From: an uncultured Erysipelotrichaceae bacterium
GTDB lineage: Bacteria; Bacillota_I; Bacilli_A; RF39; UBA660
Length of the DNA: 64,000 bases
Direction of reading: 5' to 3'
Assembly (NCBI GenBank): GCA_902775285.1
Contig: CACYLI010000002.1
Location: forward strand, 8,413 to 72,412
The translations under genes and the position numbers were made by a program. Shown here piece after piece: positions 1,211 through 34,231 of the stretch (position 1 is the stretch's first letter; each line of letters starts with the position of its first letter). The notes below the pieces were generated by a model. The model did not search any database and was not told where the DNA came from. It was given only the letters and a program-made list of their open reading frames with translations.

Positions 1211-1237
1211 CAAAAAAATACTTCTTTATGAAGTATT
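1211..1237 (-). terminator. Intrinsic terminator closing the T7SS toxin operon (after DUF4176)
   Basis: Hairpin AATACTTC...GAAGTATT plus T-run on minus strand. Confidence 0.65.
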
Positions 1238-1571
1238 ATTCTATTTCTATTATTGGTTCTTCTTTTATAGGAGCTTCAGGTACATCTGGGTTTACTGTTT
1301 GTATTATTTGTAGCATAGACGATAGATTAACTTTAAATTTCTTTTCTTCTTCATCAGAAACTCCCATATGAACAACCTCTAAAATATCACTATGATTAAA
1401 TAGATTAGCCTCTCTATTAGAAAGCATTCCTTCTGGATATAAGCATCCACAATAATCATACATTTTACTTCTTTCATGATTATCATACATACAGAAACCA
1501 GTAATCATTAGTTTTTTTGTGCCTTTTTTTAATTTAACAATTGTTCCTAAAGGTAAATACTTTTCCTCCAT
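1236..1571 (-). CDS. DUF4176 family protein (T7SSb-locus associated)
   Basis: LPLGTIVKLK..KKLMITG...YDY.GCLYPEG...FNHSDI..V...G matches the DUF4176 pattern. Confidence 0.88.
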   Translation of the reverse strand: MEEKYLPLGTIVKLKKGTKKLMITGFCMYDNHERSKMYDYCGCLYPEGMLSNREANLFNHSDILEVVHMGVSDEEEKKFKVNLSSMLQIIQTVNPDVPEAPIKEEPIIEIE

Positions 1572-1572
1572 A

Positions 1573-2076
1573 CTACATCTCCTTATTTAAAATACTTGTT
1601 ACATCTGAATGTGTATAACTTCTTTCATCATTTGTATTTTTTAAACTATCTAGAACCAAATTTACCCCATCTTTTGTTTTTAATATATCAAGTATGCTAC
1701 TTGTATCATCAGATTTATCACAAATAGCATCTCCTGAACCAAGTTTTAATCTATCAAGATTATCTTCTTCATTTTCAAGAATATCATCATTTATTATAAT
1801 ATTATTTTTATCTAGTTTATTATATAAATCATATATTCTACTATCCATCATTATCATAATAGATTTTATTTTTTCAAGTCTTGTATATAGTTCACTTATA
1901 TCATTAAACAATATACCATTTAAGTTTTCTATATCATGAGAATCAATATTATTAATAGATGCAGATGACTTTAAACTAATAACTGATTTTTCTATTTCAG
2001 GTAAAAAATCTATTATTTTTTTAATTTCTTTTAACCCATAATAGAATTCTTCAGGAGATAAATTCATACTATCCAT
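1573..2076 (-). CDS. Hypothetical protein; helical N-terminal half, possibly WXG100/Lap-like hairpin
   Basis: 167-aa ORF abutting both neighbours, with RBS AGGAGG; no recognised family. Confidence 0.6.
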   Translation of the reverse strand: MDSMNLSPEEFYYGLKEIKKIIDFLPEIEKSVISLKSSASINNIDSHDIENLNGILFNDISELYTRLEKIKSIMIMMDSRIYDLYNKLDKNNIIINDDILENEEDNLDRLKLGSGDAICDKSDDTSSILDILKTKDGVNLVLDSLKNTNDERSYTHSDVTSILNKEM

Positions 2077-2316
2077 TTAAATACCTCCTTTTATTCTATT
2101 AGTTATACTATTATTAATAACTCTTAAATCATCAATCATATTATTAACATTTGTTTTTGATTTAGAAAGTACTTCTTTATCAATACTTTGTCCACTTACA
2201 ATAATATCATTTAAATAATTATTAGCATTTTCAATATAATCATTTAATGTAATTAATTTAGTATTTAAATCATTTATACATTTTATTAATTCTTTAGATT
2301 TATTATCTTCATTCAT
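2077..2316 (-). CDS. Small helical protein, possible T7SS targeting factor; shares a motif with the 201-aa ORF
   Basis: 79-aa ORF with RBS GAGG; segment NNYLNDIIVSGQSIDKE resembles SEYLKRVIINSEPFDRG of 23661..24266. Confidence 0.6.
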   Translation of the reverse strand: MNEDNKSKELIKCINDLNTKLITLNDYIENANNYLNDIIVSGQSIDKEVLSKSKTNVNNMIDDLRVINNSITNRIKGGI

Positions 2317-2325
2317 GTAAAACCT

Positions 2326-3027
2326 CTATTTTAATACATTTTCACTTTCAATATCTAATTCTCTAATAGAACTATCACTATATTCAATAACACTAACTTC
2401 CATATTTAATTCATCATTTAATAAATCTTTAAGTTCTTCACATTTTTTTCTAAAAAATGCAAGTCTAGCAAAATATTCATCTCTATTTTCCTTATTATCT
2501 ACTTTAGAAAATCCTGGAACCATTCTTGCTCCAATTACAAGTGAATCATTTGATGAAAAGAAATTTCTTGATGTTGATGGACCATAATTAATATCTATAA
2601 TACTTTTATCTTTATTAACATCTTCAAATATAACTTTTTTAAATGTATTCTTTATAAATGATTCAATTTCATCATTATATTCACTGCCTATTTTACTATC
2701 TAAAAAATCTTTTTCTTCTTTTGATAAAGCTTCAATATATATATTATTTCGAATATAAAAGAATGTTAACTCTTCATTACACAAATATTGATATAAATCT
2801 TGGTATCCTTCACTTACACCAAGTATTTGATGTTTAAATTTTCTAGAATCACCTATTTCATTATCTATTTGTTTTAAAGAAGTATTTTTAATTAAATATT
2901 TAAGAAACATATTATTATAAAAAACATATTCTTTTAAATACTCTTCTTTATCACCTAATTCATTAAAATAATTATAATTTAATAATGGAAATCTTGTAAT
3001 ATACATTTCTTCAGTTATTTTTTTCAT
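2326..3027 (-). CDS. Hypothetical protein, paralog of 3848..4561; candidate immunity protein
   Basis: Shared blocks TRFP, YLIKNTS.K, YQYLC, Y.RNN.Y, NYGPS, LVIG.R, VIEYS.SSIR; start placed at MKKIT from RBS spacing. Confidence 0.75.
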   Translation of the reverse strand: MKKITEEMYITRFPLLNYNYFNELGDKEEYLKEYVFYNNMFLKYLIKNTSLKQIDNEIGDSRKFKHQILGVSEGYQDLYQYLCNEELTFFYIRNNIYIEALSKEEKDFLDSKIGSEYNDEIESFIKNTFKKVIFEDVNKDKSIIDINYGPSTSRNFFSSNDSLVIGARMVPGFSKVDNKENRDEYFARLAFFRKKCEELKDLLNDELNMEVSVIEYSDSSIRELDIESENVLK

Positions 3028-3049
3028 ACTTAACATCCTTTCAATTTAT

Positions 3050-3058
3050 ATTATAACA
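3050..3058 (-). promoter_or_regulatory. Internal extended -10 promoter inside the putative immunity array
   Basis: TGTTATAAT on minus strand in the short gap before the AAAGGA RBS of 2326..3027. Confidence 0.5.
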
Positions 3059-3069
3059 TATTTTTATTA

Positions 3070-3840
3070 TCATAAACTTCTAACATCTTCATTTAATAAA
3101 AAATCTGTAGCATATTCAATAAATTCATTCATCTTCTTTGGATCATGAAACATATGATCTGCTCCTAAAATATCAATAAATTCAATACCATTTTTATTAG
3201 CAAATTCTTTTACTTTTTCAAATGATACTAATTCATCATGAGTACCTTGAAAAATCATTATATCTTCTGAATAATTACTAAAATCATATGTAGTAATATC
3301 ATTATTCTTTAAGTCACTCACAAAATCTGGAGTTAATCTCATTTTTTTATCAAATCCAACTAATATACTTTTACCACTCTTAAGTGCTTTTAATGATTCA
3401 TCATTAAGTATATTATTATTTAAAACTTCATACATGTTTATAGCTGGACATCTAAGTACTATTTTTCTAAAAGGATTAGGATTTTCAGAAATATATTTTA
3501 GTCCTAAATAGCCACCAAAACTTGTAGCATTTAAATAAATATTTTCTGGATTAAATGTCCTATAAATATAACTTAACATATCACTATAGTAATTCATACA
3601 ATCACTTAAACTAAGTTTTTGTCTTACATCTTTTCCATGGCAAGGTAAATCAAATGATATTACACATATATCATCATAACTATCTAACACTTTTTTTGAT
3701 AATCTTCTAGTCGCGGCATTTTCTTTATTACCTGCAAATCCATGGCAAGATAATATAACATTTCTAATATTACTTAAATCATTATAATATATTTTACATT
3801 TAATATTATTATTTTCATTTACTTCAAAATATTTTTCCAT
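3070..3840 (-). CDS. Alpha/beta hydrolase (paralog of 24751..25503)
   Basis: HGFAG, FDLPCHG, nucleophile elbow ATSFGG, GTHDELV (Asp), GADHMF (His). Confidence 0.9.
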   Translation of the reverse strand: MEKYFEVNENNNIKCKIYYNDLSNIRNVILSCHGFAGNKENAATRRLSKKVLDSYDDICVISFDLPCHGKDVRQKLSLSDCMNYYSDMLSYIYRTFNPENIYLNATSFGGYLGLKYISENPNPFRKIVLRCPAINMYEVLNNNILNDESLKALKSGKSILVGFDKKMRLTPDFVSDLKNNDITTYDFSNYSEDIMIFQGTHDELVSFEKVKEFANKNGIEFIDILGADHMFHDPKKMNEFIEYATDFLLNEDVRSL

Positions 3841-3847
3841 AATGCCT

Positions 3848-4561
3848 CTACTTCAAAGTATTAGTTTTACTAATATCTATATTTCTAATAGAAGAAGATG
3901 AATATTCTATAACTTGAACATTTACATCTAATTCATCATTTATTGTTTCTTCAAACATTTCACATATTTGACTAATAACATTCTTTCTTTCTAAGTATTT
4001 TTCTACTAATGAATCATTACTTAAATCATTTACCATTTCATCATATCTAAATCCAATTACTAAAGTTCCATTTTTTACATAAAATGAACTTGAATCAGAT
4101 GGCCCGTAATTTAAAGATGAATCATCACTTGTTTTTTCTTTTATTACTTTATTGAATGTACTTTTAATAAAATTTTCACTTTCACTATCAAAAGAATAAT
4201 TATTACTTAACATTTTATTATCTAAAAATGATTTTTCTTCTTCTGTTAGTCTATCTAAATATAAATTATTTCTAACATAGAAATAGTTTAGCTTATTACT
4301 ACATAAATACTGATACATATCTTTTTCATTATCCATTATAAATGGAATATCATAATTAGAACTATTTTGTAATAATTCTTCTATTTTTTTAATACTTGTA
4401 TTCTTAATTAAATAATCTACTAATAATGTAGTGTATAAAGAATATTCTTTAAAGAAATATTCTTTATCACTATCATTCATACTTTCATAATCATATGTTT
4501 CTAATTTAGGAAATCTAGTATTAAAGATATCTTCATTTAAAACTATTAAACTATCTTTCAT
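3848..4561 (-). CDS. Hypothetical protein, paralog of 2326..3027; candidate immunity protein
   Basis: 237-aa ORF colinear with 2326..3027 over its full length; start overlaps upstream stop by 1 nt. Confidence 0.75.
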   Translation of the reverse strand: MKDSLIVLNEDIFNTRFPKLETYDYESMNDSDKEYFFKEYSLYTTLLVDYLIKNTSIKKIEELLQNSSNYDIPFIMDNEKDMYQYLCSNKLNYFYVRNNLYLDRLTEEEKSFLDNKMLSNNYSFDSESENFIKSTFNKVIKEKTSDDSSLNYGPSDSSSFYVKNGTLVIGFRYDEMVNDLSNDSLVEKYLERKNVISQICEMFEETINDELDVNVQVIEYSSSSIRNIDISKTNTLK

Positions 4562-5121
4562 TATCTATTCATTCCCTTCATTTGTTCATCTATATCTATA
4601 ATATCATATTTACTTTCGTCATTTCCATATGAATTATTACTTAAGTAAGAACCAGGATTTAACTCTTCCTGTTTCAAGAAATTATATTCTTCTTCAGTTA
4701 AATCCTTGATTCTTATGTCACATAAACCATACTTATCATCATAATATAATATTAATCTACCTAACTCATAATACGATTTAATTAATGACTTAGGTTTAAA
4801 ACAAATATGCATATCTTTTTGATTATAAATAATACTAAAACTACCTGCATTTTCTACATTAATTGGGCCTGATTCAGAAAAATAAGAAGCAATATATTTT
4901 TTTTCTAGATCATTTATATCGGGTAATTCATAATCTGACTCTTCTATTCTATTTGATAATGCACAAACACCAGAGCAAATTTCATTACCAAGAACATATA
5001 AATCTAATTCAAATATATTATTAGTATCACCAAATCTAATTGAAAATACATTTGAATAATTATTACCTAGATTAAAGTATAATACAGATTCACCACCAAT
5101 TTTAATTTTTTCTTTATTCAT
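4561..5121 (-). CDS. Hypothetical acidic protein immediately downstream of the giant gene; candidate immunity to its C-terminal domain
   Basis: Start (MNKEK, 5121) overlaps the giant ORF stop, indicating translational coupling. Confidence 0.7.
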   Translation of the reverse strand: MNKEKIKIGGESVLYFNLGNNYSNVFSIRFGDTNNIFELDLYVLGNEICSGVCALSNRIEESDYELPDINDLEKKYIASYFSESGPINVENAGSFSIIYNQKDMHICFKPKSLIKSYYELGRLILYYDDKYGLCDIRIKDLTEEEYNFLKQEELNPGSYLSNNSYGNDESKYDIIDIDEQMKGMNR

Positions 5122-8100
5122 ATGACCACCATCCAATTAAATCTTTCAATTCTTCTTCAGTACAAGTATTTATTTTACCATTTTTCAACATATTTTGGAA
5201 ATCTATATTTTTCATTAATTCATCAAAAGCTTTTTCAGCTAATTGACTATTCGGTAAATAACTTAAAATATAGTTTTTTATGTCTTCATCTGTTGAAAAT
5301 ACATTAAAAACTTTATCTTTAATGATTATTGTTATTATAGATTCATATACTTTAGAAATTAATGTTAGATTATTCTCATCTACTTTAGCATAAACACTAT
5401 CTTTCATTCTTTCTTGCATTTGCATTAAGTTTATTTTTAATTCTGGATTTTCATACATTTCATCTAAATATTTATTTAGGCCTAAATTCTTTCCTCCATC
5501 GAAGTTAAACAATTCCTCTATCATATTTGAAATAGTTATATGAAAGAAAGTACTAGTATAACCAGCATCAGTTGAATCTAAAATCATTGTATTTATTAAT
5601 TCCTGCTTTACAATCATTTTATATTCTTTAGAATTGCTTGGTTTTATCGCTTCATCATTTGAAATCCTTTTACTAATTTCTTTTATATACCATTCAATAG
5701 ATGAAATTATAGGTGCAAGAGCATTTGAGTTAACTCTTTCAGAAGTTGGATACATATGAAATATTTTTTTATCAATATGAAATGTTTTTTTACTAGTTGG
5801 TGAGATATCATTTCCTAATATTTCAATAATAAATCTATAATTTCCATTAGCATTAGCATTAGCATCTACAAGTATTTTAAGACCTCTACTATACTTACTA
5901 CTAGAATATTTGTACTTTTCACTATTATTTTGTTGATTAATACATTTATCTATTGCATTCATATACAAATGCATTGTTGCAAGTCTAGCAATATTTCTTA
6001 TTTTATTTAAATCGCTTGAATCAATTATTCCTTTATTTTTCTTTATTTTTTGTAATATATCAATAATTTCTGTTTCATTTTGATAATTTTGTGTTAAATT
6101 TCCATTTTCATCAATAATTCCAGCTGAAATAAGTAAGCTTTCTAATCTATATTTTCCAGTAAGAGTATCTTTATTAGCACAATAATTTGATTGGCCTATG
6201 CTTTCTGCTATACTACTATCTATTTTTGCAATAATACTTTTTGCTTTTTCATTATTCTCTAAGAAGTTTTTCAAATCTGTATAAAGCTGATTATTCGTTC
6301 CATATCCACCATTTACTTCTATTAAATAATCACCATTTGGGGCCAATTTAAAAGTACCTTTAAAATCTCTTTTTTGTTCTTTTGCAATATTTAATAATTC
6401 ATCCAAATCTGCTTTATTAATTGAAACCGAATAATTCATTAAAACACTTTCAACTATTTCATTAGCGTGTTTTAAACAACCTATAATTCTATCTCCTTCT
6501 TTATGTCCTGACATCTCAATTATTATTCCATTTGTTTCAACTATCATATTTTCTGGAAAACCATTAACAATTGTATCAGATGATTCTATTATTCTTGTTT
6601 TTAAATTACTACTTGCTTTTGAAAAATAATCTACTATAGATGATTTTTGTAATCCATCCAATTTACGAGGACTTGAATTAACCGCACCAACATCTTCACT
6701 ATCATCAATCTCTATTATTGCTGATTGATTATGTTCACTAGATGAATTATTAGCTTCAATAATGTCACTTTCTATATAATAATGTAGTACTTCATCATTT
6801 TTCTTAACACCAAGTAGTTTTTCCATTAATGATTGTTTTGAAGATATTTCTGTTTGTTCTTTAATATAAGATTTTTGTTTTTCAGTTAAATAAACTTCTA
6901 TAGACTTTATAAATGTATAATCATTATCACTAATTGATTCTAATTCTTCTTTTGTTAGACTTCTTATAATTAATTCTTTTAATTTAATTTCATTATAAGA
7001 ATTATAATATAGATTAATCTTTTGTTCTAATGACATACTGTTTATAAATTCATTTACTATTTCTGGATTATCTACTATAAGATTATAGTATTCTAAAAGT
7101 ATTTCTGGATCAGAAGTATATTTTAGTATACTATTAGGTTCCATATTATTAAGTAATTCTATTAATAGTTCTTTATTATCTGTCAATTCAAGAGTATCTA
7201 AATTAATAATATTACTTTCAAGACCTCTTATAACTTGTAAATAATCTTTTTTAGCTATTAATTCTTTAATCTTATTTCTTGTTACTTGAATATTTTCTTC
7301 ACTATTCATTTCTAGATTTAATGAGAATATTGCACTATTATCTGAATATAAATCAGAGTATCTAATTAAAGCTTTATGACCCCAAGTAATAACAATTAAT
7401 CCATCTTCATTAGCACCAATAATAGTAGTAATATGAGCTCCACCTTCATTCCAATTAAAAGTTGAACTATAATCATTAGTTTCATCTAAGTTGTATAATA
7501 CTAATTCATGAGCATCTTTTGATACTACTTTATTTCCTTTTTTATCAGTATCCATTTCAACTCTTTCAGTTAAACTTAATATTTCACCATTAGCAAGTCT
7601 TCTCTTAATATCATTTTTTAATAAATCAATGTCTACTGAACCATCTTCATTATAACTAAGAGTTAATTTAGAACCTTCTGTTTCTATTCCATAGTGTCTT
7701 AAGTAATCAAATGCTATTTGATAATATCCATCTATATTACAAGCATATACTTGCTCTTTAGAATTTGCTGTTCTAAATTTACCATCTTCATTTATTATAT
7801 TTAGTTTTCTCTTACCATCTGTATCAATAGTAAATATTCTTCCATTTGGATTTGTATCTGATGAGTTAAAGAATAAATACATATCAAATAGTAAAGCTCT
7901 AGTATTTAATACTCTTACTCCATTCTCATATTCATACATGTCAAACCCAAATCTACGTTTAAATCCTTCAGGATTGTTTCTAAATATCCATAATATTACA
8001 TTGCATAAATTTGCATAAGAACATGCTCCTTTTTGTGAATCTATAATGTTATTAATTGTTTCAACAATTAAACCTTCTGTCATATTATATTTACTTGAGA

Positions 8101-11100
8101 AATGATCAACAAATCTTCTAAATGAAGGAGTATTAATTTGAGAAGGACCAATTTGTCCATAATTATTTCTTCTAATAAATGAATATATTCTTTCAGATCT
8201 TTTTATTTTTTGATTTGTTCCTAAAGTAGATCTTTTATTTCCATGTCTATGTTTTTCAAAGAAAATTTCTTTTTCAATTAATCCAGTATTAATTCTTGAT
8301 TCTATTAAATCACTCATTTCTGAATCAAATTCATATCTTAAATCAGAAGTAATTCTTCCAACAAATGAAGTATCCTTAGTAATTAATTCTTCTTTAATTA
8401 AATCTATTACTTTTGCACCTTCACTTAAACATAAAGTAAATAACTCAGAATCAGTATATAATACTTTATTATTATATTTATATTCATATACTTTTCTTCC
8501 ATCTATTGTAAGTACACCTAAATAAGTTAATTCACTATCTCCTATTTTAATATTAAATCTATTAGCATGTAATAATCTAGGATTTTCTTTAATATAATCT
8601 AGGATTTTAGTATCATTAGTACTTAAATACAAATCTATTAAATTATTACCATCAATATATTTAATATAGTCATTATTAGTTTGATATAAATATAAGATAT
8701 TACTTGAAGTTAATGAATTAATATTATTAGACATAAATACTTTATTAAGTATTTGATTATTATACTCTCTAATTCCTGTTTTTATAATTAATGAAACAAA
8801 ATCTACATCTATATTTCTATATAATTCATTAAATTCATCAGTACTTAAACTATTTAGGAAATCTATTACATAATTAGATATGAAACCATTATTTAAATCT
8901 GTATTTACCTTATCAAGGAATCTTATCTTATATTCATTATTACTATAAGAATTAATTAATTTTTTTATGTTATCTATTGATTTAATATTATTAACAAAAT
9001 TTGGGAAAGCAGATATTGTATTAGCTAAAAAATCATCAATCTCCATATTACTTAGAATAGTATCACTATCTAAATTTTCTCTTGTTAAATCTATTAAATC
9101 ATATTTATGTTCATTAACAAATTCTTTATCTTTTATTAATTCATTAAATATTTCATCAGTTGTATAATCTAAAATGAAATATACTTTCTTATAATTACCA
9201 TCAGCATCCAATAGTGATCTAATTAGTTTAATATCTTTTATTTCACTAATTAAATCGATATATCCTTCATCAATAAATAATGAATAATTATCAATTTGTA
9301 ATACTCTAGATGCTACTTCATCAGCAGTTAAATCAAATTTAGAGTAACTTGGTGCTATTAATCCTAAATTGTTTTTAACAAATGTATTACTTTCAAATAA
9401 AGTTTTGAATACTTCTTTTGGTATTTTATTAATTAATTCATAATTAAAATGTATATTTGAAAGAATATCTGAATCTATAGATGTTATACATTTAGTAAAT
9501 AATTCTTTATCAAGACTATTTAATATTCTAACAATTGATTCTCCAGGTATTGTTGATAATCTTTCAATTGTATTGTCAAAATCAATACCACTATTTAGTT
9601 TATTTTGAATATCCAATTCAATTATTACATTTTGAATTATACTATTTAATCTTTCTTCAAACTCTAATTTATTAGAATCTGTATTATAACCTTGAATTAA
9701 TCTATTAAACTCTCTTGTTGTAAGTAATCTTTCTTTAACACTCTCATCTATTTCTCTTCCGTTAAGTATATTATCTATTATATTGTCTGATATATTAGTA
9801 GGTTTAGAATCAAGTTTTGAAATTAAATTGTTAATAGAATTAACTATTCTACTATAAATTTTAGAAATAGAATTTGTAATTGTTGATAACTTGTTATTAA
9901 TGCTATTTTTAAGATTAATTAAAGATTTAGTTAATCTTATTTTTTGAGAATCTAAAATTTGATTACTATCTACTTGTTTCTCTATATCAGTAACTATATT
10001 ACTAACTCTTGTTGCTATACTTTCAGTTGCACCAATTTCTACTAAATTTTGTGCTTCAATTATTTTTTGAGTATTCATATCAATATATTCTGATACATTT
10101 ACTCCAATATTTTCTAGAGTTAACAACTCACTAGGAGTTAAAGATTCTAATATTCGTGTTACTTCAGTTCTATCACTAGATTCTAATAACTTATTTATTT
10201 TAGTAGCAATTGTATTACTATAAATAACATATTGGTTATTTTCATCTACTCTAATTCCAAATGAAGTAACAAGTACAGATTTACCATTTGCATCTGTTTC
10301 ATAAATGTTAATATTTAATGCATTATTCTGTGTCTTATTGTTTAATCCAATAGTAATTGTTTTATTATTTCTTCCACCTGTTAATAAATCTTCTTGTGAA
10401 GCAACATCTCTCATATATTGTTGAAGAGTACCTATATTTCTATTTCTAACATTATCTATTCCAAATAATGTAGGTAATGCTTCTAATAAACCTGGAAGAC
10501 CTTTAATATCTTCTAGTTTTATATTTCCTAAAAGTGAAAGACTATCAAATAATTCTAAATCATTTTCTGTTCTGCTTTCAATTAATTCTTCTGTTAATTC
10601 TTTAATGAAATAATCACTTACAGATAATAATGGACTTATTCTTGAATCTACATTTAAAATAGCATCAGTATTACCTTCATTAATAATTTTAAATATAGCT
10701 TTTTGTTTTGCAAGTTTAGCTTTATCTATATTATATTTAATGTTTCCATCTGGATTAGGTAATACCCATCCATAGAAGTATGAACCAAATTCATCAATTA
10801 TATCTCTTACTTCTTCACTAATATTATCATTTACACCATCCATAAATTCTAATCTATAATTAAATGGTGAAATTCTAGATTCTTTTGTTACATTAGCAAA
10901 CTCTGAATCATGCCAATATTTAGATTTGATTTGTTCACTAGATAAATACATAAATCCTGTAGTTGGACGTCCTACTTTAATATTATAATAATCTGGATGT
11001 CCCAATGGAATTGTCATATCTGGAACAATCAAACTTCCATCTTCAAGTATTACATACATAGCAGCATGACTATTATAAACATAACTATTATCATCATACA

Positions 11101-23638: not shown

Positions 23639-23660
23639 ACTCTTATTCCTTATTATCATC

Positions 23661-24266
23661 TCACATTGTCATACCATGAGTAGGACATGCTGGCATTCTT
23701 GCATAATTATTATAAGCATTATCTGCTTTTATTCTTAATGCATTTATTTCATCTGATAAAGCTTGTATATCTGCATTTAATTTATCTATCTCATCATTTA
23801 ATTTTTTATTCAGTTTTAGACATTTTTCTAACATTTTAACTAAATTATCTTTATATTTTTTTAGTGAACTTGATAATTCTTGACATTTTCCTCTATCGAA
23901 TGGTTCAGAATTTATTATTACGCGCTTTAAATATTCACTAATTGCATCTAAAGCTGATGAATAATCTCCAAGTATATCAATAAACTCAGAAAGTAATGGT
24001 AAAAATTCTTCATAATTAGCTCGTGTTTCTTCATCTGTTGCTAATTGTTCTTGTTTTGTTTCTTGTTCTGTTATTTTTTCTTCTTTTTGAGTTTCTAAAC
24101 TCTTATATAAAGAATATGCAGCATTTCTAGCTCCACAAGTACAAATAGGAGTATAAACAGGAGTATTCCCCCCTTTTTTTCCACTACCTTTTCCTCCACT
24201 TTTTGCTGGAGCATTAGTGCCATCTACTACCATTCGAAATTTTATATTATTATGAATACGTCTCAT
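23661..24266 (-). CDS. Coiled-coil protein with Gly/Lys-rich N-terminus and terminal Cys/His motifs; likely T7SS effector partner
   Basis: 201 aa, RBS AGGTGAGG, directly upstream of the giant gene; CTCG near N-terminus and CPTHG at C-terminus flank long heptad helices. Confidence 0.7.
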   Translation of the reverse strand: MRRIHNNIKFRMVVDGTNAPAKSGGKGSGKKGGNTPVYTPICTCGARNAAYSLYKSLETQKEEKITEQETKQEQLATDEETRANYEEFLPLLSEFIDILGDYSSALDAISEYLKRVIINSEPFDRGKCQELSSSLKKYKDNLVKMLEKCLKLNKKLNDEIDKLNADIQALSDEINALRIKADNAYNNYARMPACPTHGMTM

Positions 24267-24332
24267 ATCCTCACCTATTATTCTACTATAATAAGTTTAC
24301 TATAATATAGGGTTTTTTTCAATAAAATAGCA

Positions 24333-24368
24333 TAAAAAAAAAGAAACTTTTTAGTTTCATTTTTTTAC
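24333..24368 (-). terminator. Probable intrinsic terminator after 24378..24695
   Basis: GAAAC...GTTTC hairpin flanked by A and T runs. Confidence 0.5.
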
Positions 24369-24377
24369 TTTAGAAAA

Positions 24378-24695
24378 CTATCTTTTTTCTATTTGATTTT
24401 CTTCTATTAAAGTATATTCTCTATTAGCTTCTTCTATTAATTTTGAATACATTTGATTATATAATGTAATATTATTTTTATCACTAAAATAGCCTAAAAA
24501 TCTAAATATAGCAAATATTGTACTTTTAGGAGTACGATTAATGCTTTCTTCTACTGATAAAAGAGTAAAGATATCTTCAGCTATTTTTTCATCTTTTTTA
24601 TTTCCAGAAGATGCATTTTTTTCTTTTAAAGAAGTAGCTCTTTTTCTCATATCACTAATTAAACTATTCAAATTTAAAATATCTTCATCTTTCAT
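24378..24695 (-). CDS. Hypothetical helical protein
   Basis: ORF with GGAGAG RBS before MKDED; no recognised family. Confidence 0.6.
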   Translation of the reverse strand: MKDEDILNLNSLISDMRKRATSLKEKNASSGNKKDEKIAEDIFTLLSVEESINRTPKSTIFAIFRFLGYFSDKNNITLYNQMYSKLIEEANREYTLIEENQIEKR

Positions 24696-24750
24696 ATTTT
24701 CTCTCCATATCAATTAGATTCTATCATAATAAATCTTTTTTTTCAATTAT

Positions 24751-25503
24751 TTAGTTAAATAAGAATTCTACAGCTAGTAAAACAAATTCATGCATTTTAG
24801 CTGGATTTTGAAATCTATGATCAGCACCTTCTACACCTATAAAATCTATACTATTATTATGTGCAAATTCTTTTACTTTATCAAATGGTACTAATTCATC
24901 ATCTGTTCCATGAAATATTAATAATTTATCTTTAAAACTACTATAGTCATATTTTGTAATATCATTTTCTTTTAAAGAATCAACAAACTCTTTAGTTATT
25001 CTAAATTGTCTATCATATCCAAATAAGAAACTTTTACCATGACTTAATAGTTTTTTATTATCTTCTGTTAATATATTTTCATTTAATACTTGATACATTA
25101 TAACAGCAGGACATCTAAGAACCATTTTTTTAAATGGGCATCCATATTCATGAATATATTTGAGACTTAAGTATCCTCCAAAACTAGTGGCATTTAAATA
25201 TACATCAGCATTAAATCTTTTTTTAGCATAATTTATTACATGATTAAAATAATTAGAACAATCATCCAAGGTAAGTTTTTGTCTAACATCTTTACCATGA
25301 CAAGGCCAGTCAAATGTCAAAATACATACATCTTTATGCCTATCTAAAATGTATTCTGATAACTTCTTAGATGCATTATTTTCTTTGCTTCCACCAAAGC
25401 CATGACAAGATACTAATACTTTATTAATAGTACTCAAATCTTTATAATACATTTTACATTTAATACTTATATTATCTTCACTTATTTCAAAATACTTTTC
25501 CAT
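24751..25503 (-). CDS. Alpha/beta hydrolase (paralog of 3070..3840)
   Basis: HGFGG, FDWPCHG, ATSFGG, GTDDELV, GADHRF. Confidence 0.9.
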   Translation of the reverse strand: MEKYFEISEDNISIKCKMYYKDLSTINKVLVSCHGFGGSKENNASKKLSEYILDRHKDVCILTFDWPCHGKDVRQKLTLDDCSNYFNHVINYAKKRFNADVYLNATSFGGYLSLKYIHEYGCPFKKMVLRCPAVIMYQVLNENILTEDNKKLLSHGKSFLFGYDRQFRITKEFVDSLKENDITKYDYSSFKDKLLIFHGTDDELVPFDKVKEFAHNNSIDFIGVEGADHRFQNPAKMHEFVLLAVEFLFN

Positions 25504-25560
25504 TTTACTTAACTCTCTCTAGACTAATTTTACTATAATGATTATTTTTTTTCAACAAAT

Positions 25561-25590
25561 AAAAAAGATAAGAATAATTTCTTATCTTTG
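25561..25590 (-). terminator. Intrinsic terminator after the double-WXG100 gene
   Basis: AAAGATAAGAA...TTCTTATCTTT hairpin with T-run on minus strand. Confidence 0.75.
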
Positions 25591-25606
25591 ATATCAATAT
25601 TTTATA

Positions 25607-26224
25607 TTAAAAATTGTAATTTGAAACAGCAGTACTAATACTTGTAGAAACAGCATTTAATGTCTCTTTATAAATTTTACTCTTAGACATAAATGTATTA
25701 AATGCATTTTGAGCTTTATCTCTACCAGTTCCAGCAGTCCAGTTTTGCATTATTTTTTCATAATACATTCTTACATTTGAAATAAATCCATCCATTGCAC
25801 TATTAGCAGCATCAACTTTTGCTTTTCCTTCATTAGCTTGTGCAGTAATGTTGATTGTATCTCTAGTATCGCTGTATTCTGGTAATTTAGATTTTTCTTC
25901 AGCTACAAGTGGTGTTAGAGTTTCTAAAACAGCGCCATTAGATTTTTGAATATCTCTATAATTAGCAGCTATTTTTGTTGAATCAGAAGCTAAGCTTACT
26001 AGTGCATTTCTTATTTCAATCATACCATTAAATACTGTAACGATATTATTGATTTGAACACCAGCATCTTTTCCTTCCCAACATCCTTTAAGTACATTGA
26101 TAGCAGTACCTAAATTATTAATAATAGTATCTGCACTTGAATCCTCTGTACCCATTACTCCATTTTTGAATAATGCAACTGCATCTTCATACAAATTTTG
26201 TACACTTTGAACTTTATGATTCAT
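25607..26224 (-). CDS. Tandem (double) WXG100-like protein
   Basis: Two ~100-aa helix-turn-helix halves with central WEG and WTAG motifs, each ending in an A..NY-like segment; directly downstream of essC; strong AGGAGG RBS. Confidence 0.8.
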   Translation of the reverse strand: MNHKVQSVQNLYEDAVALFKNGVMGTEDSSADTIINNLGTAINVLKGCWEGKDAGVQINNIVTVFNGMIEIRNALVSLASDSTKIAANYRDIQKSNGAVLETLTPLVAEEKSKLPEYSDTRDTINITAQANEGKAKVDAANSAMDGFISNVRMYYEKIMQNWTAGTGRDKAQNAFNTFMSKSKIYKETLNAVSTSISTAVSNYNF

Positions 26225-26295
26225 CTTATCTACCTCCTATTTTAATAATACATCTTTTATTTTTTTATTTCAACTTATTTTACATAGTTTATACA

Positions 26296-29200
26296 TTATT
26301 TTTCTTGATTAACAAGTTTTACAACAACAGGTATTCCATTGTTAATAACTGCAGCATATTCTTTTGTTATATTGTTATAACTTGATAATTGTATTTGTGA
26401 TTTAAGTAAGAATTGTTGAGTTACTCCAGGTCCTATCCAAATACCATCATTTGTATTAACACTTTCTTTAAACCAAGCATCATACTCATACTTTTTAAAG
26501 TTAGATGGTAAATCAAATAATGCAAAACATATTTCATTATATTCTTTACTATCAAGTAAAATTTGATTAAATATTTCTTTACTCTCATCAGATAGCTTAC
26601 TATAGAACTTATCAAATCCAAATATAACACATAATAAATCTGGTTTTTTCTTTAAAACTCTAACATTCATATTATTTTCATTTAATACTGCTTTTACTTT
26701 ATCATTATGATTTTTTAATGCTGTTACAGCTTTATCAAATTCACTATTAGAATAAGCTATTTCATAATTGAATTCTTCAAAGAAATTAGTAGCATCTATT
26801 ACTACCTTAGTAAATGTCTCTTTATTTTCTATTAATCTAATAAAATTTTTAGCATATAAATTCATAGCATTCATTTCATTAGCGGAAATAATATTAACTC
26901 CATTCTTCTTAAAGTTAAATACAGTAGAAACCAATGTATCTTTTGATATACCTACAGGAATATTTTCTAAATCTACATATTTCTTATTAAATACATCATA
27001 TGTAATTTCATCAGGCATAGTAGGTATTCTTTTTGCTTTTAACATTCCACTATCACTTAATTGTTTTACAGAAGATTTAATTTTTTGAATAATATCATCT
27101 TGTTTATCAATAAATGCAGTTTGAAATTCTAAAACTTTATCTAATTTTACAAGTCCACGTCCTAAATAATTTGTTGGTACAAGACCATCTGTTTTTCCTA
27201 ATATGTCTCTATAAGACATTTCATTATTAAGTTGTAATGTATATATTTGTTTACAACTTTGAGTAACTTTAAGTCTTATACTACTTTGATTTTCAGTTGT
27301 AATTATGAAGTAAATACCATATTTACTTCCTTCTCTAATAAGAGGTACAAAATTATCTCCCATATCCATATATAGTTCATTCATTACTTCAAAATAATTA
27401 ATTACTACTACTATATTTGGAAGTTCTTTACCACTAAGTTTAATATAATCTTTATAATTACCATTATAACTAGTAAATAATTTTTTTCTTTCATTCATTT
27501 CCTTAGTAAGTAGTTTTATTAAATTATTAAGTTTTTCTTCATCATCACTAAGTACAATATCACCTACTTGAGGTGCACCATCAAAATTAATTAATGTCTC
27601 AGGTCCAAAATCGGCAATATAAATATTTAGTTCACGAGAATCATGATTAGCAATTAATGAATAGATTACTGTTTGTAACATTTCATCTTTTCCACTATCA
27701 CTCATACCATATATTATAGTATTTCCACCATCTGTTATTGGCATTGTTAATAATCCTTGATTTTGATTAGTTGGATTATCATACTCTCCTATTATAGGGT
27801 TTAAGACAAAACGTTTTTCTTTATAATTATATTTTTTTACTAAATTAGAAAGAATTATATTACTTGGTAATTTATCTAGCCATAATTGATTAATATTCAA
27901 ATTCATTTCACTACCAGTATCAATTAAATATTTAACAATTGATGTTAATTCTTCTCCTTCTGATTTTAATGATCTTCTAGCTATTGAATTATTAATTGAT
28001 CTACTTACATTACCAACATTATCAATAAAATATAAATTTTTATCTATTTGTTTTTTAAATTCCTTACTAGGATAATATTGAGCTCCTGCCCAAGCTGCTT
28101 GACCTAATGCAAATAATTCATTATATCCTACTTGTAAATAGAATCTACCAACATTTTTAAGTTCAGCTGCAAAATCATTTTTAATCATTTCCATACTATC
28201 AGATTTATCTTGAACTTTTAAACAAATTTTAAATTTAGAGTTAGACCATATTTGAGCATCTACTACTCCACTAGGTTTTTGTGTTGCTAAAATCAAGTGA
28301 ACACCTAAAGAACGTCCAATACGAGCTGTACTAATCAAATCATCCATAAAATCTGGTTGTTGATCTTTTAATTCTGCAAATTCATCACATACTATTATTA
28401 AATGTGGAATTGGTTCTTTAATAACTCCATCTCTATATAATTTTTGATATTTATATATATCTATTGTACTCTCTCCAAGTTGATCTCTTACTTCATTAAA
28501 TTTTTCTTGTCTACGTCTTAATTCACTTTGAATACTTGAAAGTGCTCTATTTATTTCTGTTTTATCTAAGTTTGTAATTGTTCCTACAACATGAGGAAGT
28601 TTTTGACCAGTATCACTATTTACAAATGCTCCAGCAAGGCCTCCACCTTTATAGTCTATTAAAACAAATGCAACTTCTTCTGGACTATAATTAATGGCCA
28701 TTGATAAAACATATGTAATGATTAATTCAGATTTACCAGAACCAGTCATACCTGCAACAAGTCCATGTGGACCATGAAATTTTTCATGTATGTCTAATAT
28801 AAATGCATCTCCATTTTCATTAACACCTATTTCAGTTTTTAAAGATTTTGTTGGATTATTAGTTTTCCATCTATTAAGTACATTTAATTGTTCAATTTGT
28901 CCAACACTAAATAATTCTAAGAATGTAATAGTACTAGGTAATTGTTTAATATCATAATCCATATATAATGGCAAATTAGATAAAGATTTTGTTACAATAT
29001 TCATATCATAATTATTATCTATTTCATCTGAAAATCTTATTTGGCTATTATCTTCACCATTAATAACAACAGAAGCTGAGTCTCCAATAGTTATAAATTT
29101 AGAAACTTGACTAGGTACTTTAGATAATTTTTCTTCTACAATTACTAAACTAAATCCTAAATTAATACGTTCTTCTAATACTTTTTCCACTATTTTTATT

Positions 29201-30864
29201 TTTCTTGCTGTATCTATATCATCAACAAGTAATAAATAATAAGTGTTAAACGCTGTATATGAGTTTACTCTTTCATTAGAATTACCATTTTGAAATAGTA
29301 CTTTTCTATTCTTCATTATTTGTTCTAAATAATCAGATACTTCTTGCATCTCTTCAGTATTTGTAGCAAAAAATCTTATATATTTATCATTTGAAAAAGC
29401 ATAAGGTGATTCTTTTAAATAATCCCATCTTTTTTTGTTTTTATTATTTGTAAAAACTACAATTTTTAAATTATCATAACTATGATATGCCATCATTTGA
29501 AGAAAAACATTATTTATGAAACTTAAATATTTTGGATGTATTCCATTAATATTAGTTAAGGGATTTTCAGCAAATGAATATGATATTGGAGCATCATTAA
29601 TAATATCAAATTGTTTGATTGTAGAATCAAGCATTTGTTTTAAATCATCATCATCCATTGTGAAATCTTCTTTAGAATAACTAATTCTAGCATCAAAAGG
29701 AACTTGTCCTTTACCAATTCTAACACTTAAAAAATCATCTTGATCTATTTTTCTTTCCCATAGTGTTCTTCTTTTATTAACAATAATATCATAACAAACA
29801 TTATTAGCAAGATAACTTTCTTCTAAATACTTTTTTTGATCATCAAATTCTTTTACAATATCTTTTTTCTTTAATTCTATATAACTTCTATATTTTTCTT
29901 GACGATTTTTTTCTCTTTTCTTTTTTTGACTTTTTTCATATGCTCTTGTAATAAAAGGCCATATAAACATACTTAGTATCATAGTAACAGTAATAACTAA
30001 AGCAGGAATAGATTGAGACCATGTTCTTTCACCAGCTGTAACAGCTTGAATTGTATTTGTAAGTGTCACTAAAGAACTTGCTCCCATTGTAAGCATTGGT
30101 CCTAATGTCATTATTAATGGTGTTTCTTGCATATTCTCTTTTCCAGGAGGAGAATCTACATGCATTTCTAATGTTTCCATTTTTTTTCTCATTCTAGGAC
30201 TTTTTAAAAAATAATCATTATCTTGATACAACTTATCATTTTGTATTTCTTCATCACTTATCATATCACTAACTGTAATGAATTTTTCTGTTAAATTATT
30301 TATTTTAATTATATTATTAAAAGGAGCATTAACAAAAATCATATTTTTAACTAAAATAATTTTATATCCATAACAATTTATAATGTCTCCATTTTTAGCA
30401 TATACTACATCACTTTTAACTTTTTCATCATTCAAATATACATCAGCATTCTCATTTTTTTGAATTCTCCATCTTCCATTCTCAATAAATAATGTATAAT
30501 GAACATCATTAAAATATGGAATATTAATACATATTTCATTATCTGGTTTCATTCCAACTTTTACTATTTTATCATCTGGAAATTCAAACTCCCTAAAAGT
30601 ATAATCAATATTATCAGATGAAAACAACACATATCTTTTATTATTTTTTTCTACAACATAATATGTATTTGGTTTTAAAATATTACCTTCTTCTGAAGAA
30701 ATAATTTTTGTATTTTCACTACTAGTAATTATCCAATTATTATTTTCCCCACTTATATTAACAATATTTTTCCCTTCATTATCAGTCATCCAAAAATCAC
30801 CAATTTTTTTAATTGGTAAAATGAATCTAACAATATCATTTTCATCGAATAAATACAAATTCAT
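26296..30864 (-). CDS. essC: Type VII secretion FtsK/SpoIIIE ATPase EssC/YukB
   Basis: N-terminal FHA-like region, two TM helices, [46 protein letters not shown]; second ATPase domain GMSDSGKD. Confidence 0.95.
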   Translation of the reverse strand: [1522 protein letters not shown]

Positions 30865-30886
30865 ATTCTTTTTTCCCCTTTTTAAA

Positions 30887-31132
30887 CTACAAAAGTATTA
30901 ACTTCGTTCCATTTCTAATATCTGTATTTTTAATTAAATCATTATTATTATAAACATCACCTGTATCTGTATTTAATAACATATAATTTCTTTCGCTATC
31001 TATAGAGTCAAATAAAGTTGTATTTAATAATTTAGAAATATTGCCTATTTTTTCATTAACAGGTATAAATACTTCATGTGTTTCATCTAAAGATAAAATA
31101 TATATATTTACTAAAACTTTATTATCTAGCAT
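30887..31132 (-). CDS. YukD/EsaB-like ubiquitin-fold T7SS protein
   Basis: 81 aa directly upstream of essC; EVFIPVNEKIG... and C-terminal IRNGTKLILL typical of EsaB/YukD. Confidence 0.75.
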   Translation of the reverse strand: MLDNKVLVNIYILSLDETHEVFIPVNEKIGNISKLLNTTLFDSIDSERNYMLLNTDTGDVYNNNDLIKNTDIRNGTKLILL

Positions 31133-31212: not shown

Positions 31213-31635
31213 TTAAATGAAGTTTCTTTTTTCCTTTAAATAAAACAATAATTCTAATAAAATAATACCTAAACTATCTATAAAAACATCTATTGTTTTA
31301 CCACTTCTACCTATTACAAATAATTGATGTATTTCATCACTAATCGCATATAATAAACATATTAAAAATGTAAATAATAAAATATGTTTTAAGTCTATAT
31401 TATATTCTTTTAATAATAAACTAACTAATAAAGCCAAAACAAAATATACTCCCATATGAGCAACTTTTCTTATAATCGGATCAATTATATCTATGACTGA
31501 TTCATCTTCTGTAGTAAGTCTACTTACAAATCCTCTGCTTTGATTCTCTGATTCATTTCCATTTAATGAAGAAAAGTAAAAAATTAGTCCCATCCATAAT
31601 ATAATAAATACTATTAATATTATTTTTTTAGTCAT
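31213..31635 (-). CDS. VanZ family membrane protein
   Basis: W..LIFYFSS, RKVAH...Y..L, YAISDEIHQLFV.GR....DV.IDS.G. Confidence 0.9.
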   Translation of the reverse strand: MTKKIILIVFIILWMGLIFYFSSLNGNESENQSRGFVSRLTTEDESVIDIIDPIIRKVAHMGVYFVLALLVSLLLKEYNIDLKHILLFTFLICLLYAISDEIHQLFVIGRSGKTIDVFIDSLGIILLELLFYLKEKRNFI

Positions 31636-32103: not shown

Positions 32104-32421
32104 TTACATAAATCTTGGTCCACAAACATTTACATTACATACTTCATTTTCTTCAGTACATGTATAACTTGGACTATAAGTATGTCTATAAATATGATGA
32201 TTTATTATTCTTGTATTAATTGGTTGAATATGAGGAACTTCATGTATTATTTCTTTATGTATACATCTTTCTTGAGGACACTCTATAATTGGTGAACACA
32301 TCACTGGTGTACTAGGACAAGAATTCATCATATTATCTTTCATAGTATTATCAGGTGTTACTTTTAATTCAGCACTTCCTTCAACACTGTATCCTTGATA
32401 CATACCCATATTATCTTTCAT
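32104..32421 (-). CDS. CotD-like spore coat protein
   Basis: Cys/His/Pro-rich; HEVPHIQPINT..INHH.Y.H.Y.P pattern; upstream CATAGAAT sigmaE/K-like -10 and AAGGAG RBS. Confidence 0.7.
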   Translation of the reverse strand: MKDNMGMYQGYSVEGSAELKVTPDNTMKDNMMNSCPSTPVMCSPIIECPQERCIHKEIIHEVPHIQPINTRIINHHIYRHTYSPSYTCTEENEVCNVNVCGPRFM

Positions 32422-32507
32422 AATTAACAACTCCTTTTCATGAGTATTCTATGTATTATTATAAAAAATGAATAGGTATATAAAACAAAAAGTAGATTAC
32501 TCTACTT

Positions 32508-34230: not shown

Positions 34231-34231
34231 A

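Follow-up and report, generated by a model that had tools for sequence, protein, structure and literature searches.

A type VII secretion locus of reduced gene content with a giant candidate cargo protein in uncultured Bacilli

Gene content of the locus

The stretch of DNA analyzed here (64,000 nucleotides, referred to as the window; positions 8,413 to 72,412 of contig CACYLI010000002.1, GenBank assembly GCA_902775285.1) belongs to an uncultured Erysipelotrichaceae bacterium and revealed a putative type VII secretion system (T7SS) locus, in which genes for an EssC-type ATPase and a WXG100 protein precede an open reading frame (ORF) for a giant protein of 6,181 amino acids (aa). The window has a G+C content of ~25% and is part of a 1.44-Mb genome in 28 contigs, which is 83% complete. 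Fifteen co-oriented ORFs on the minus strand fill positions 1236-31132, with vanZ on one side and a SpoU/TrmL methylase gene on the other. In the direction of transcription, the first part encodes an 81-aa protein, EssC, a 205-aa tandem WXG100 protein, an alpha/beta hydrolase, a 111-aa protein, a 201-aa helical protein, and the 6,181-aa giant, followed in the second part by a 191-aa ORF, a 237-aa protein, a second hydrolase, a 236-aa paralogue, a 79-aa and a 167-aa protein, and finally DUF4176. A sequence-only reading of the window had listed this gene set (yukD/esaB-like, essC, double WXG100, hydrolase, small ORFs, giant ORF, DUF4176) as co-oriented between vanZ and trmL, and both the ORF list and the Pfam matches agree with it. 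The core genes are:

30887..31132, minus: YukD/EsaB-like ubiquitin-fold protein, 81 aa, no C-terminal Gly-Gly (assigned by fold and by position next to EssC)
26296..30864, minus: EssC-type FtsK/SpoIIIE ATPase, 1,522 aa, with an FHA region at the N-terminus, one or more transmembrane segments, and repeated P-loop domains (TIGR03928)
25607..26224, minus: fused tandem WXG100 protein, 205 aa, directly downstream of essC (PF06013, E 3.5e-7)

Core genes

EssC revealed a full-length match to TIGR03928 (984.9 bits, cut-off 778.4, over 217-1511) together with matches to PF01580 (FtsK_SpoIIIE, E 3.2e-41) and, weakly, to FHA (E 1.3e-4), and its Walker-type ATPase motifs are invariant in 11 diverse EssCs. 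In the tandem WXG100 protein, W49xG51 and W162..G165 are invariant among 15 orthologues, and its profile matched the solved chains of EsxA (2vrz, E 2.4e-5, residues 126-201) and EsxB (4j42, E 1e-3, residues 24-92). With an EccC/EssC ATPase and an adjacent WXG100 gene, the locus is a type VII secretion locus in the broad sense.

No Pfam match at E 0.01 was obtained for the 81-aa protein, and PF08817 (Pfam YukD) was touched by 6/70 of the YukD-like proteins of the 87-locus clade described below at E <= 0.1, which is weak sequence evidence. Its AlphaFold2 (AF2) model, based on a 70-sequence alignment, displayed a ubiquitin-like beta-grasp (predicted local distance difference test, pLDDT, 89), and Foldseek returned template modelling (TM) scores of 0.7-0.8 to ubiquitins, with the ubiquitin-like domain of EccD5 (7np7_D2) at rank 8. 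According to this model, the protein is predicted to be a ubiquitin-like EsaB/YukD (TsxB) component at the fold level, while the PF08817 sequence model is not reached.

The sequence-only reading had found neither a canonical single-domain EsxA nor an LXG protein. This holds for the window but not for the genome, in which another contig carries a canonical single-domain WXG100 pair (G000:C6:125-454 and 469-780; 109 and 103 aa), one member of which passes the PF06013 cut-off with 33 bits. The pair lies beside rbfA/infB at the contig start and is unlinked to either essC on the known contigs. The second EssC of the genome (1,521 aa, 41% identical to that of the window) is encoded on contig C12 and has its own 86-aa ubiquitin-like gene. 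This second T7SS locus (L037, G000:C12:23266-32042) comprises a 134-aa ORF, a 952-aa ORF, a 195-aa ORF that has weak WXG-like matches, EssC, and the gene for the ubiquitin-like protein of 86 aa, after which valS follows; only 143 bases of the contig lie upstream.

Phylogeny of EssC and the 87-locus clade

A search with the window EssC alone retrieved no relative; with an alignment of 11 EssCs, 80 loci were obtained from public genomes, picked by their likeness to the query. A FastTree phylogeny was calculated from 123 EssCs with a minimum length of 1,400 aa, a set that had been supplemented by ten more loci with EssB context, and an IQ-TREE phylogeny from 51 rows. In the FastTree analysis, EssCs from an EssB/EsaA context formed their own clade (11 rows, support 100), those from a kinase context a second one (17 rows, support 95), and every EssC of the genus and family fell, together with EssCs from other metagenome bins, into a clade of 87 rows (support 100), sister to the kinase clade (97). 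IQ-TREE resulted in support of 100 for this clade of bare loci, 90 for its sister relation to the kinase clade, and 100 for the T7SSb-context clade. Forcing the bare and T7SSb-context rows together, a grouping named after the tree had been seen, costs 84.3 log-likelihood units (approximately unbiased test, p-AU 0.017). The EssC of the window does not nest among the EssCs from an EssB/EsaA context; nesting among ordinary T7SSb sequences would have spoken against the sequence-only reading.

The only named isolates among the 80 loci were Neobacillus (3), Bacillus sp. (2), Clostridium cibarium, and Enorma phocaeensis, and the nearest EssC relatives in the trees are the Neobacillus, Bacillus, and Clostridium cibarium loci with 37-38% identity. 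Five loci were scanned with Pfam (one Neobacillus, one Bacillus, G026, Clostridium cibarium, and Enorma), and the other three isolate loci were labelled by our own hidden Markov models (HMMs) only. All four scanned isolate loci encode EssC, a YukD-like protein, WXG100, a DUF6382-FHA protein, and a Ser/Thr kinase; a PP2C phosphatase was found in 3/4 (not in Enorma), and an immunoglobulin-like (Ig-like) protein was seen in the Neobacillus locus. Such a content of EssC, YukD-like protein, WXG100, DUF6382-FHA, and kinase/phosphatase is what the survey by Garrett et al. (2024, PMC11217815) describes for T7SSd/e/j.

In the EssC trees, the 87-locus clade is placed beside or within the kinase/phosphatase-associated (T7SSd/e/j-like) systems. 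The suggestion of a stripped-down or divergent T7SS subtype is supported by this, but not in the sense of a stripped-down T7SSb; trees and gene content rather point to a reduced offshoot of kinase/phosphatase-associated systems. Every one of the 87 loci derives from a metagenome bin, and the record titles point largely to animal and human guts.

Some bare rows lie outside the 87-row clade, namely L122 and L126 beside the T7SSb-context clade, and L116 and L085 (short contigs) inside the kinase clade. L122 and L126, from bins of Oscillospiraceae and Clostridiaceae, encode near-identical EssCs with no EssB/EsaA in their 10-kb flanks, and L126 has a neighbor of 1,811 aa; they may represent another reduced form. 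The bins of five EssC loci bear the title Muribaculaceae or Bacteroides; of these loci, four (L062, L070, L078, L086) nest among EssCs of uncultured Bacilli and L085 in the kinase-context clade, so that mis-binned contigs seem more likely than a T7SS in Bacteroidota.

Conservation of the neighborhood

All ORFs within 8 kb of EssC were clustered for the 87 loci. Besides EssC (87/87), the YukD-like gene (85/87), WXG100-type clusters (40, 16, 15, 14, and 13 loci), and DUF4176 (22), the next cluster was an ATP-binding cassette (ABC) ATPase in 19 loci, and the rarer ones (7-19 loci) included HtrA, Abi, SpoIID, zinc-dependent phospholipase C, L13/S9, and TruA. These Pfam-matched neighbors in 7-19 loci reflect chromosomal synteny; two neighbor families had no Pfam match (10 and 7 loci). 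The neighborhood survey that the sequence-only reading had called for thus came down to EssC, YukD-like, and WXG100-type genes, plus DUF4176 in 22/87 loci.

Ten orthologous loci share the order yukD-like, essC, tandem WXG100 wherever the contig extends far enough; exceptions at the WXG100 position are an unrelated 132-aa ORF in L027 and a 183-aa ORF in L030. While the YukD-like gene lies downstream of essC in most loci of the clade, it is located upstream in the subclade of the window. Across the orthologous loci, core genes are conserved and cargo genes variable; a giant is missing altogether from the closest relative, G012, whose EssC is 74% identical. Among the 24 other genomes of the genus, 17 encode a full-length EssC and three harbor fragments or stop-bearing copies. 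Genomes of the genus range from 0.9 to 1.7 Mb with up to four EssC loci each, and those of ~1.2 Mb keep 2-4 paralogous loci.

In one genome of the genus, G006 (a single 1.5-Mb contig, 45% completeness), the EssC matches at C1:581939-586074 and 72010-75512 are broken by dozens of TGA, TAG, and TAA codons, reflecting either a frameshift-rich assembly or pseudogenes.

Search for T7SSb membrane partners

The T7SSb core of Staphylococcus and Bacillus also needs EsaA/YueB, EssA/YueC, and EssB/YukC. Six-frame HMM searches of the 83%-complete genome with two YukC/EssB models (PF10140, TIGR03926) and the EsaA/YueB N-terminus (TIGR03929) resulted in no match at E <= 10, and the best match to EssA/YueC (TIGR03927), a short and weakly conserved family, lay away from both essC genes with E 0.02 and 14.5 bits against a cut-off of 32.45. 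In the 24 other genomes of the genus, TIGR03929 gave a single chance-level match (E 0.00135, 17.9 bits). HMMs built from canonical loci of the same class detected no EssB, EsaA, or EssA in the genome or in related loci, and the local EsaA model none in the 87 clade loci. YukC/EssB was found in 0/25 genomes of the genus (including that of the window), and among 41 relatives only in G026, which belongs to another family of the same class and carries the canonical row esxA-esaA-essA-esaB-essB-essC; the search method therefore works in this class. The searches in the genome and its relatives leave the earlier statement that no such membrane protein is recognizable in place for EssB and EsaA, and less firmly for the short EssA.

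Of 250 genomes drawn evenly from the class, 24 had an EssC over the cut-off. EssB was over the cut-off in 0/11 EssC-positive genomes of the family (17 family genomes were EssC-negative), compared to 13/13 EssC-positive genomes of other families; ten of the 11 are listed with at least 95% completeness.

Two candidates and one explanation were set aside. A YukC match in the family genome G214 (23.4 bits) belongs to a 280-aa N-terminally anchored protein by mnmA, away from essC, and was treated as chance. An 831-aa five-helix protein upstream of yukD in L030, considered as EsaA, looks by eye like an FtsX/MacB-type ABC permease. A wall-less cell as the cause of EsaA loss was rejected, since the genome has five transpeptidase-domain (penicillin-binding protein, PBP) genes and MraY.

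The foremost alternative is that the system is not minimal and that it has partner membrane proteins whose genes are encoded elsewhere, have diverged beyond the reach of the HMMs, or were not captured in the bins. The 28 contigs and 83% completeness of the genome fit this, as do the shortness and poor conservation of EssA-type proteins, for which the EssA model gave chance-level matches, and the two FHA-like modules that EssC keeps. We nevertheless consider it unlikely: EssB, sought with the same model, is consistently absent from the EssC-positive family genomes and present in all those elsewhere in the class, no further non-housekeeping family occurs within 8 kb in more than 22/87 loci, and islands at different chromosomal sites share the same three core genes.

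Loss of kinase, phosphatase, and phosphothreonine-binding residues

The Pfam scan detected no Ser/Thr kinase or PP2C phosphatase in the window locus, and the sole kinase/PP2C pair of the genome, on contig C11, is unlinked to either essC. In the DNA covered, 85/87 clade loci have neither kinase nor phosphatase, while L026 and L163 revealed one match each, which may or may not belong to the T7SS genes. DUF6382 (PF19909) was over the cut-off in 0/41 relatives and had no match at E <= 0.1 in the genome itself. Regarding small membrane proteins, ORF clustering, in which no TseH/TseK models were used, revealed no recurrent family in the 87 loci, and the giant has no Ig-like Pfam match.

The FHA region of EssC differs between the two groups. 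The phosphothreonine-binding Arg is present in 0/87 clade EssCs vs. 18/23 kinase-associated rows, the Ser of SxxH in 27/87 vs. 23/23, and the Asn of SxNG in 7/87 vs. 23/23; the window EssC has Met for Arg, Asn for Ser, and Ala for Asn. On these comparisons, the 87-locus clade appears to have lost the kinase, phosphatase, and DUF6382-FHA genes as well as the phosphothreonine-binding Arg of the EssC FHA domain, i.e., a coupled loss, which supports the idea of phosphorylation control in related subtypes.

The giant ORF and its papain-like domains

The giant ORF and the features assigned to it are as follows (residues refer to the giant protein):

5114..23659, minus: giant ORF, 6,181 aa, an open frame with no stop codon
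23474..23659, minus: residues 1-62, zinc ribbon CxxC...CxxC and Gly/Ala-rich hydrophobic segment, in 7/7 giants of the subclade
within the giant, minus: long Asn/Ser/Asp-rich low-complexity linker of ~270 aa, up to residue ~335 (from the sequence)
21980..22657, minus: residues 335-560, conserved helical N-domain (alignment of six giants)
17960..21772, minus: residues ~630-1900, a run of about six ~190-aa helical repeats that are 25-45% identical to one another (self-BLAST)
16220..16852, minus: residues ~2270-2480, Gly/Ala/Ser-rich hydrophobic region (hydropathy peaks at 2314 and 2451)
within the giant, minus: coiled-coil-looking region after residue ~2480 (by eye)
within the giant, minus: duplicated module of ~1,050 aa, residues 2850-3900 matching 4510-5600 (self-BLAST)
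12365..13342, minus: residues 3440-3765, predicted papain-like cysteine-peptidase domain, copy 1 (AF2, structural alignment)
7250..8167, minus: residues 5165-5470, papain-like domain, copy 2 (43% identical to copy 1)
within the giant, minus: C-terminal ~580 residues to 6181, no feature assigned

The giant is not an assembly artefact, because window positions 4800-18515 (13.7 kb) are matched collinearly by a 24.9-kb contig of an independent study; the two differ by ~2-3%, and most indels keep the frame. The remainder is covered piecewise by three more runs, which belong to two other studies. No RNA run was found among the sequencing runs listed for the locus. The representative of its database cluster begins with the residues after Met8, which suggests that translation may start there. 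Apart from a weak zinc ribbon (Zn_Ribbon_1, E 0.0086, below the cut-off), the giant had no Pfam or PDB sequence match, and searches of both halves against PDB chains resulted in nothing relevant at E <= 1. Proteins of 2,224-3,721 aa, some cut by contig ends, occupy the orthologous position with the same N-terminal module and different bodies, and mid-protein hydropathy peaks are similar in L032 and L033. A transglutaminase-like Cys/His/Asp motif seen by eye near residues 4150-4260 was dropped, as it had no Pfam match at E <= 1.

At the end of each duplicated module lies a Cys/His (papain-like) domain that belongs to no Pfam family. In an alignment of 32 sequences, Cys49 of GxCSY is invariant and His263 of GGGH near-invariant. 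The AF2 model (pLDDT 88) found its best neighbors by VIA-align among the clan-CA peptidases IdeS, UfSP, ZUFSP, SpeB, and staphopain, with middling Z scores of 7.0-7.5, and most of the 50 best rows were clan-CA peptidases as well (Z 5.2-7.5). Foldseek returned no match at E <= 0.001 (best E >= 5.9e-3), and in the ESM Atlas all scores were 0.88-0.89, i.e., below 0.9, so that the clusters of cysteine peptidases found there (C39, IdeS, staphopain) served as no more than a lead. The assignment is accordingly one at the level of the modelled fold, and peptidase activity is predicted. Among 1.84 billion proteins, the domain has 418 representatives at E <= 1e-3. It is usually C-terminal in proteins of 700-1,500 aa, many of which have, by eye, a helical-looking start and no obvious signal peptide; of 44 carriers scanned, 42 lacked a Pfam match at E <= 1e-5, while one of the remaining two matched dockerin and the other a DUF6287 + Peptidase_S41_N stretch.

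Partner, hydrolase, and candidate immunity genes

The genes surrounding the giant ORF are:

24751..25503, minus: alpha/beta hydrolase, first copy, 250 aa (Abhydrolase_1 and Hydrolase_4, ~E 7e-10)
24378..24713, minus: 111-aa hydrolase-paired protein, with homologues beside the hydrolase in L026 (35% identity) and L031, no family match
23661..24266, minus: 201-aa helical-hairpin partner with Cys/His pairs at both ends, Lap-like (position, pattern)
4561..5136, minus: 191-aa ORF overlapping the giant stop codon, candidate immunity gene (position only)
2326..4561, minus: 237-aa and 236-aa paralogues (41% identity) flanking the second hydrolase, with homologues in L103 and L063
3070-3840, minus: second alpha/beta hydrolase, 256 aa, 57% identical to the first
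1236..2316, minus: terminal trio of a 79-aa helical hairpin, a 167-aa protein, and DUF4176 (111 aa); same trio by trmL in L026 and L030
1236-1571, minus: DUF4176 (E 2e-25)

The hairpin partner precedes the giant in 7/7 orthologous loci, which have the pattern CxH...NGxPFDxGE...CxxC in common; its LXG match (E 0.008) is weak and below the cut-off. Members of the hairpin-family HMM lie among WXG genes in other T7SS loci, and the 79-aa protein of the terminal trio matches this HMM with E 1.6e-18. For the 191-aa ORF, no homologue among 2,562 locus proteins and no family match was obtained; together with the 237- and 236-aa ORFs it is a candidate immunity gene.

As a separate observation, a hydrolase of ~250 aa followed by a protein of 87-111 aa recurs as a module in T7SS loci of the subclade (window, L026, L031), and the two could form an effector/immunity pair of their own.

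Is the giant exported by the T7SS?

Giants were found in seven of the 12 loci of the subclade, and all seven keep the order yukD-essC-WXG-hairpin-giant while their flanks differ. Five giants follow a tandem WXG100 gene, that of L027 follows the 132-aa ORF, and for L035 only the first 205 residues are on the contig. In six loci, the hairpin gene is followed by a protein of 2,224-3,721 aa, and in a seventh by the first 205 residues before the contig end. An HMM of the giant N-domain revealed weak matches to proteins of ~100 aa in T7SS loci (E 2e-4 to 6e-4). Complex prediction of the N-domain with the 201-aa partner resulted in a score of 0.56, compared to 0.00 for the best of three controls; this is weak support, given that the mark was reached by 58/80 solved complexes and 2/110 mismatches, and at <= 0.60 by 7/80 and both mismatches. 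At least 75% of contacts are shared between the runs, and the pLDDT of the partner is at least 85.

That the giant is no T7SS cargo at all is quite unlikely in our view. It would then be a Sec/YidC-inserted surface protein, anchored by its zinc ribbon and hydrophobic segment and merely adjacent to T7SS genes. In accordance with this, zinc ribbon and Gly/Ala-rich segment occur in 7/7 giants, followed by a long Asn/Ser/Asp-rich linker, and the giant matches neither the LXG nor the WXG100 family. The hydrophobic segment passes a Kyte-Doolittle threshold of 1.6 in 4/7 giants, but the copy of the window fails, contains a Glu, and stays even below a threshold of 1.3. The gene order kept in the seven loci while flanks vary, the weak N-domain matches in T7SS loci, and the weakly supported complex with the hairpin partner also argue against it. 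In addition, export by the T7SS and tethering to the membrane can be compatible. We therefore regard the giant as a putative cargo, variable and polymorphic-toxin-like, with two predicted papain-like cysteine-peptidase domains.

Relation to described systems

Canonical T7SSb (Staphylococcus Ess, Bacillus Yuk) shares with the window locus an EssC above the TIGR03928 cut-off, a ubiquitin-like EsaB/YukD, an FHA region without phosphothreonine-binding residues, and DUF4176 and small helical partner genes that go with the cargo. In contrast, EssB/YukC, EsaA/YueB, and EssA/YueC were not detected here, EssC falls outside the clade with EssB/EsaA context, and WXG100 is a tandem instead of a single EsxA.

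T7SSe/T7SSj and the actinobacterial T7SSd, as characterized in the subtype survey (PMC11217815), resemble the window in an EssC with N-terminal FHA, a YukD-like gene adjacent to essC, and two WXG100 units. Unlike in those systems, no linked Ser/Thr kinase TsxD, PP2C phosphatase TsxF, DUF6382-FHA protein TsxJ, or large Ig-like envelope protein TsxI was found here, the phosphothreonine residues that are conserved in the FHA domain of TsxC are lost, and in the subclade of the window the two WXG100 units are fused into one protein. The same source calls T7SSg (Acetivibrio/Paenibacillus) "relatively simple", with two WXG100, one ubiquitin-like protein, and the ATPase, and lists TsgC without FHA, a DUF5050 beta-propeller TsgL as a core part, and adjacent Tad pilus genes (PMC11217815). 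The window locus is similar in its few predicted core parts and differs in having FHA, the comparison being made by description, with no T7SSg EssC in the trees. According to the same survey, the A, B, and C parts are (almost) universal in T7SS, and RefSeq was the basis of the survey (PMC11217815). The clade is unlisted there because all 87 loci are metagenome bins. A full-text literature search revealed no description of a T7SS with only these parts in genome-reduced gut Bacilli. As far as sequence comparison can tell, the clade would represent a previously undescribed branch of T7SS, seen only in uncultured relatives.

Concerning its cargo, the locus is reminiscent of LXG toxins with Lap partners, in that the enzymatic domains at the C-terminus vary, a gene for a small helical partner directly precedes the cargo gene, small ORFs follow it, and DUF4176 is encoded nearby. 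It differs in that no Pfam LXG was found and in that a zinc ribbon, a hydrophobic segment, and a linker of ~270 aa precede the helical N-domain. With 6,181 aa, the giant is several-fold larger than characterized LXG toxins are known to be.

Proposed function and significance

We consider it rather probable that the window carries a working locus of a distinct, reduced T7SS subtype, whose sole recurrent machine genes would be those for EssC, the YukD-like protein, and WXG100 (here as a fused tandem). In such a system, EssC multimers would form both membrane channel and motor, and the ubiquitin-like protein may bind EssC and stabilize the assembly, by analogy with YukD, which is reported to bind YukB in Bacillus subtilis (10.1101/2025.01.24.634720); the two would suffice as membrane machine. 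The tandem WXG100 protein might act as an obligate co-secreted activating substrate, replacing an EsxA/EsxB-type pair, and the variable downstream genes as exchangeable sets of cargo, partner, and immunity genes. The giant would be recognized via its helical N-domain and the Cys/His-clamped hairpin partner. DUF4176 is perhaps a chaperone, because a DUF4176 protein is reported to stabilize an LXG toxin (PMC12482557). The giant would carry its two papain-like domains out of the cell and against neighboring bacteria, with small downstream ORFs as candidate immunity genes. As to origin, a kinase/phosphatase-regulated T7SSd/e/j-like ancestor may have lost the kinase, phosphatase, DUF6382-FHA, and large Ig-like parts together with phosphothreonine binding by FHA.

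Several points weigh against this reading. To our knowledge, every T7SS studied so far needs membrane partners besides the ATPase, short single-pass proteins of the EssA/TseH/TseK type are hard to find by HMMs, all the more in a genome of 83% completeness, and in this walled organism (five PBP genes, MraY) the cargo would have to pass through the wall without an EsaA-like part. FHA domains are kept in the clade EssCs, which hints at a further binding partner. The trees contain no references for T7SSa, c, f, g, h, or i, the kinase-context clade owes its T7SSd/e/j label to gene content, and ORF calling and hydropathy screen were crude. With regard to the giant, its N-terminus resembles a zinc ribbon plus membrane anchor, unlike known T7SS cargo, and LXG (PF04740) had no match at E <= 1 in the whole protein or in 16 segments of it, the best match in the genome having E 0.17. 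Finally, among the indels listed, three runs (X2, X3, X4) revealed a 1-base deletion relative to the window at position 13240, in the first papain-like domain, so that the reading frame may or may not be kept in these strains.

A decaying remnant of a fuller T7SS that no longer secretes is highly improbable, since the lost accessory genes and FHA phosphothreonine site and the stop-riddled EssC matches of G006 are opposed by intact EssC, YukD-like, and WXG100 genes in the locus tables read, a core order that recurs across the clade, 2-4 paralogous loci retained in ~1.2-Mb genomes, an 18.5-kb frame that stays open at 25% G+C, and ATPase motifs invariant across 11 diverse EssCs.

A bolder extension of the reading as a reduced but working T7SS is doubtful and is offered as a conjecture: EssC and a ubiquitin-like helper might be the complete translocon of walled, genome-reduced gut Bacilli, with 2-4 per genome, and one lineage might export membrane-tethered giants (2,224-6,181 aa) as contact-dependent weapons, with zinc ribbon and anchor inside, a shaft of helical repeats, a hydrophobic insertion region, and several peptidase warheads, i.e., a Gram-positive counterpart in logic to CdiA.

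Which parts of type VII systems are indispensable is an open question, for which the clade offers a natural minimal system for reconstitution, since genomes of only ~1.2 Mb have retained two to four copies of its set of ATPase, ubiquitin-like protein, and WXG100. It also suggests that T7SS diversity is under-sampled in uncultured Bacillota, and the giant cargo together with the papain-like family of 418 representatives would constitute a large unannotated pool of probable antibacterial effectors.

Flanking genes

The genes bordering the locus are:

31213-31635, minus: vanZ (PF04892, E 4.5e-19)
677-1186, minus: trmL-type SpoU methylase (PF00588, E 7.4e-29)

VanZ was considered as a part of the machine and rejected. 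It adjoins yukD here and in L027, but trmL and rpoZ intervene in L033 and L034, and in other related loci rpoC, an ABC permease, or further genes take its place; vanZ is no part of the system because the flanks differ in this way. Beyond it, positions 32104-32430 of the window encode a 108-aa Cys/His/Pro-rich protein beside the nudix-vanZ genes, which is kept in L027 (80% identity) and L046 (67%). Further upstream of the locus, positions 32508-35821 harbor three co-oriented genes for a 386-aa N-terminally anchored, a 202-aa membrane, and a 529-aa N-terminally anchored protein, a group that is not conserved beside essC in other loci.

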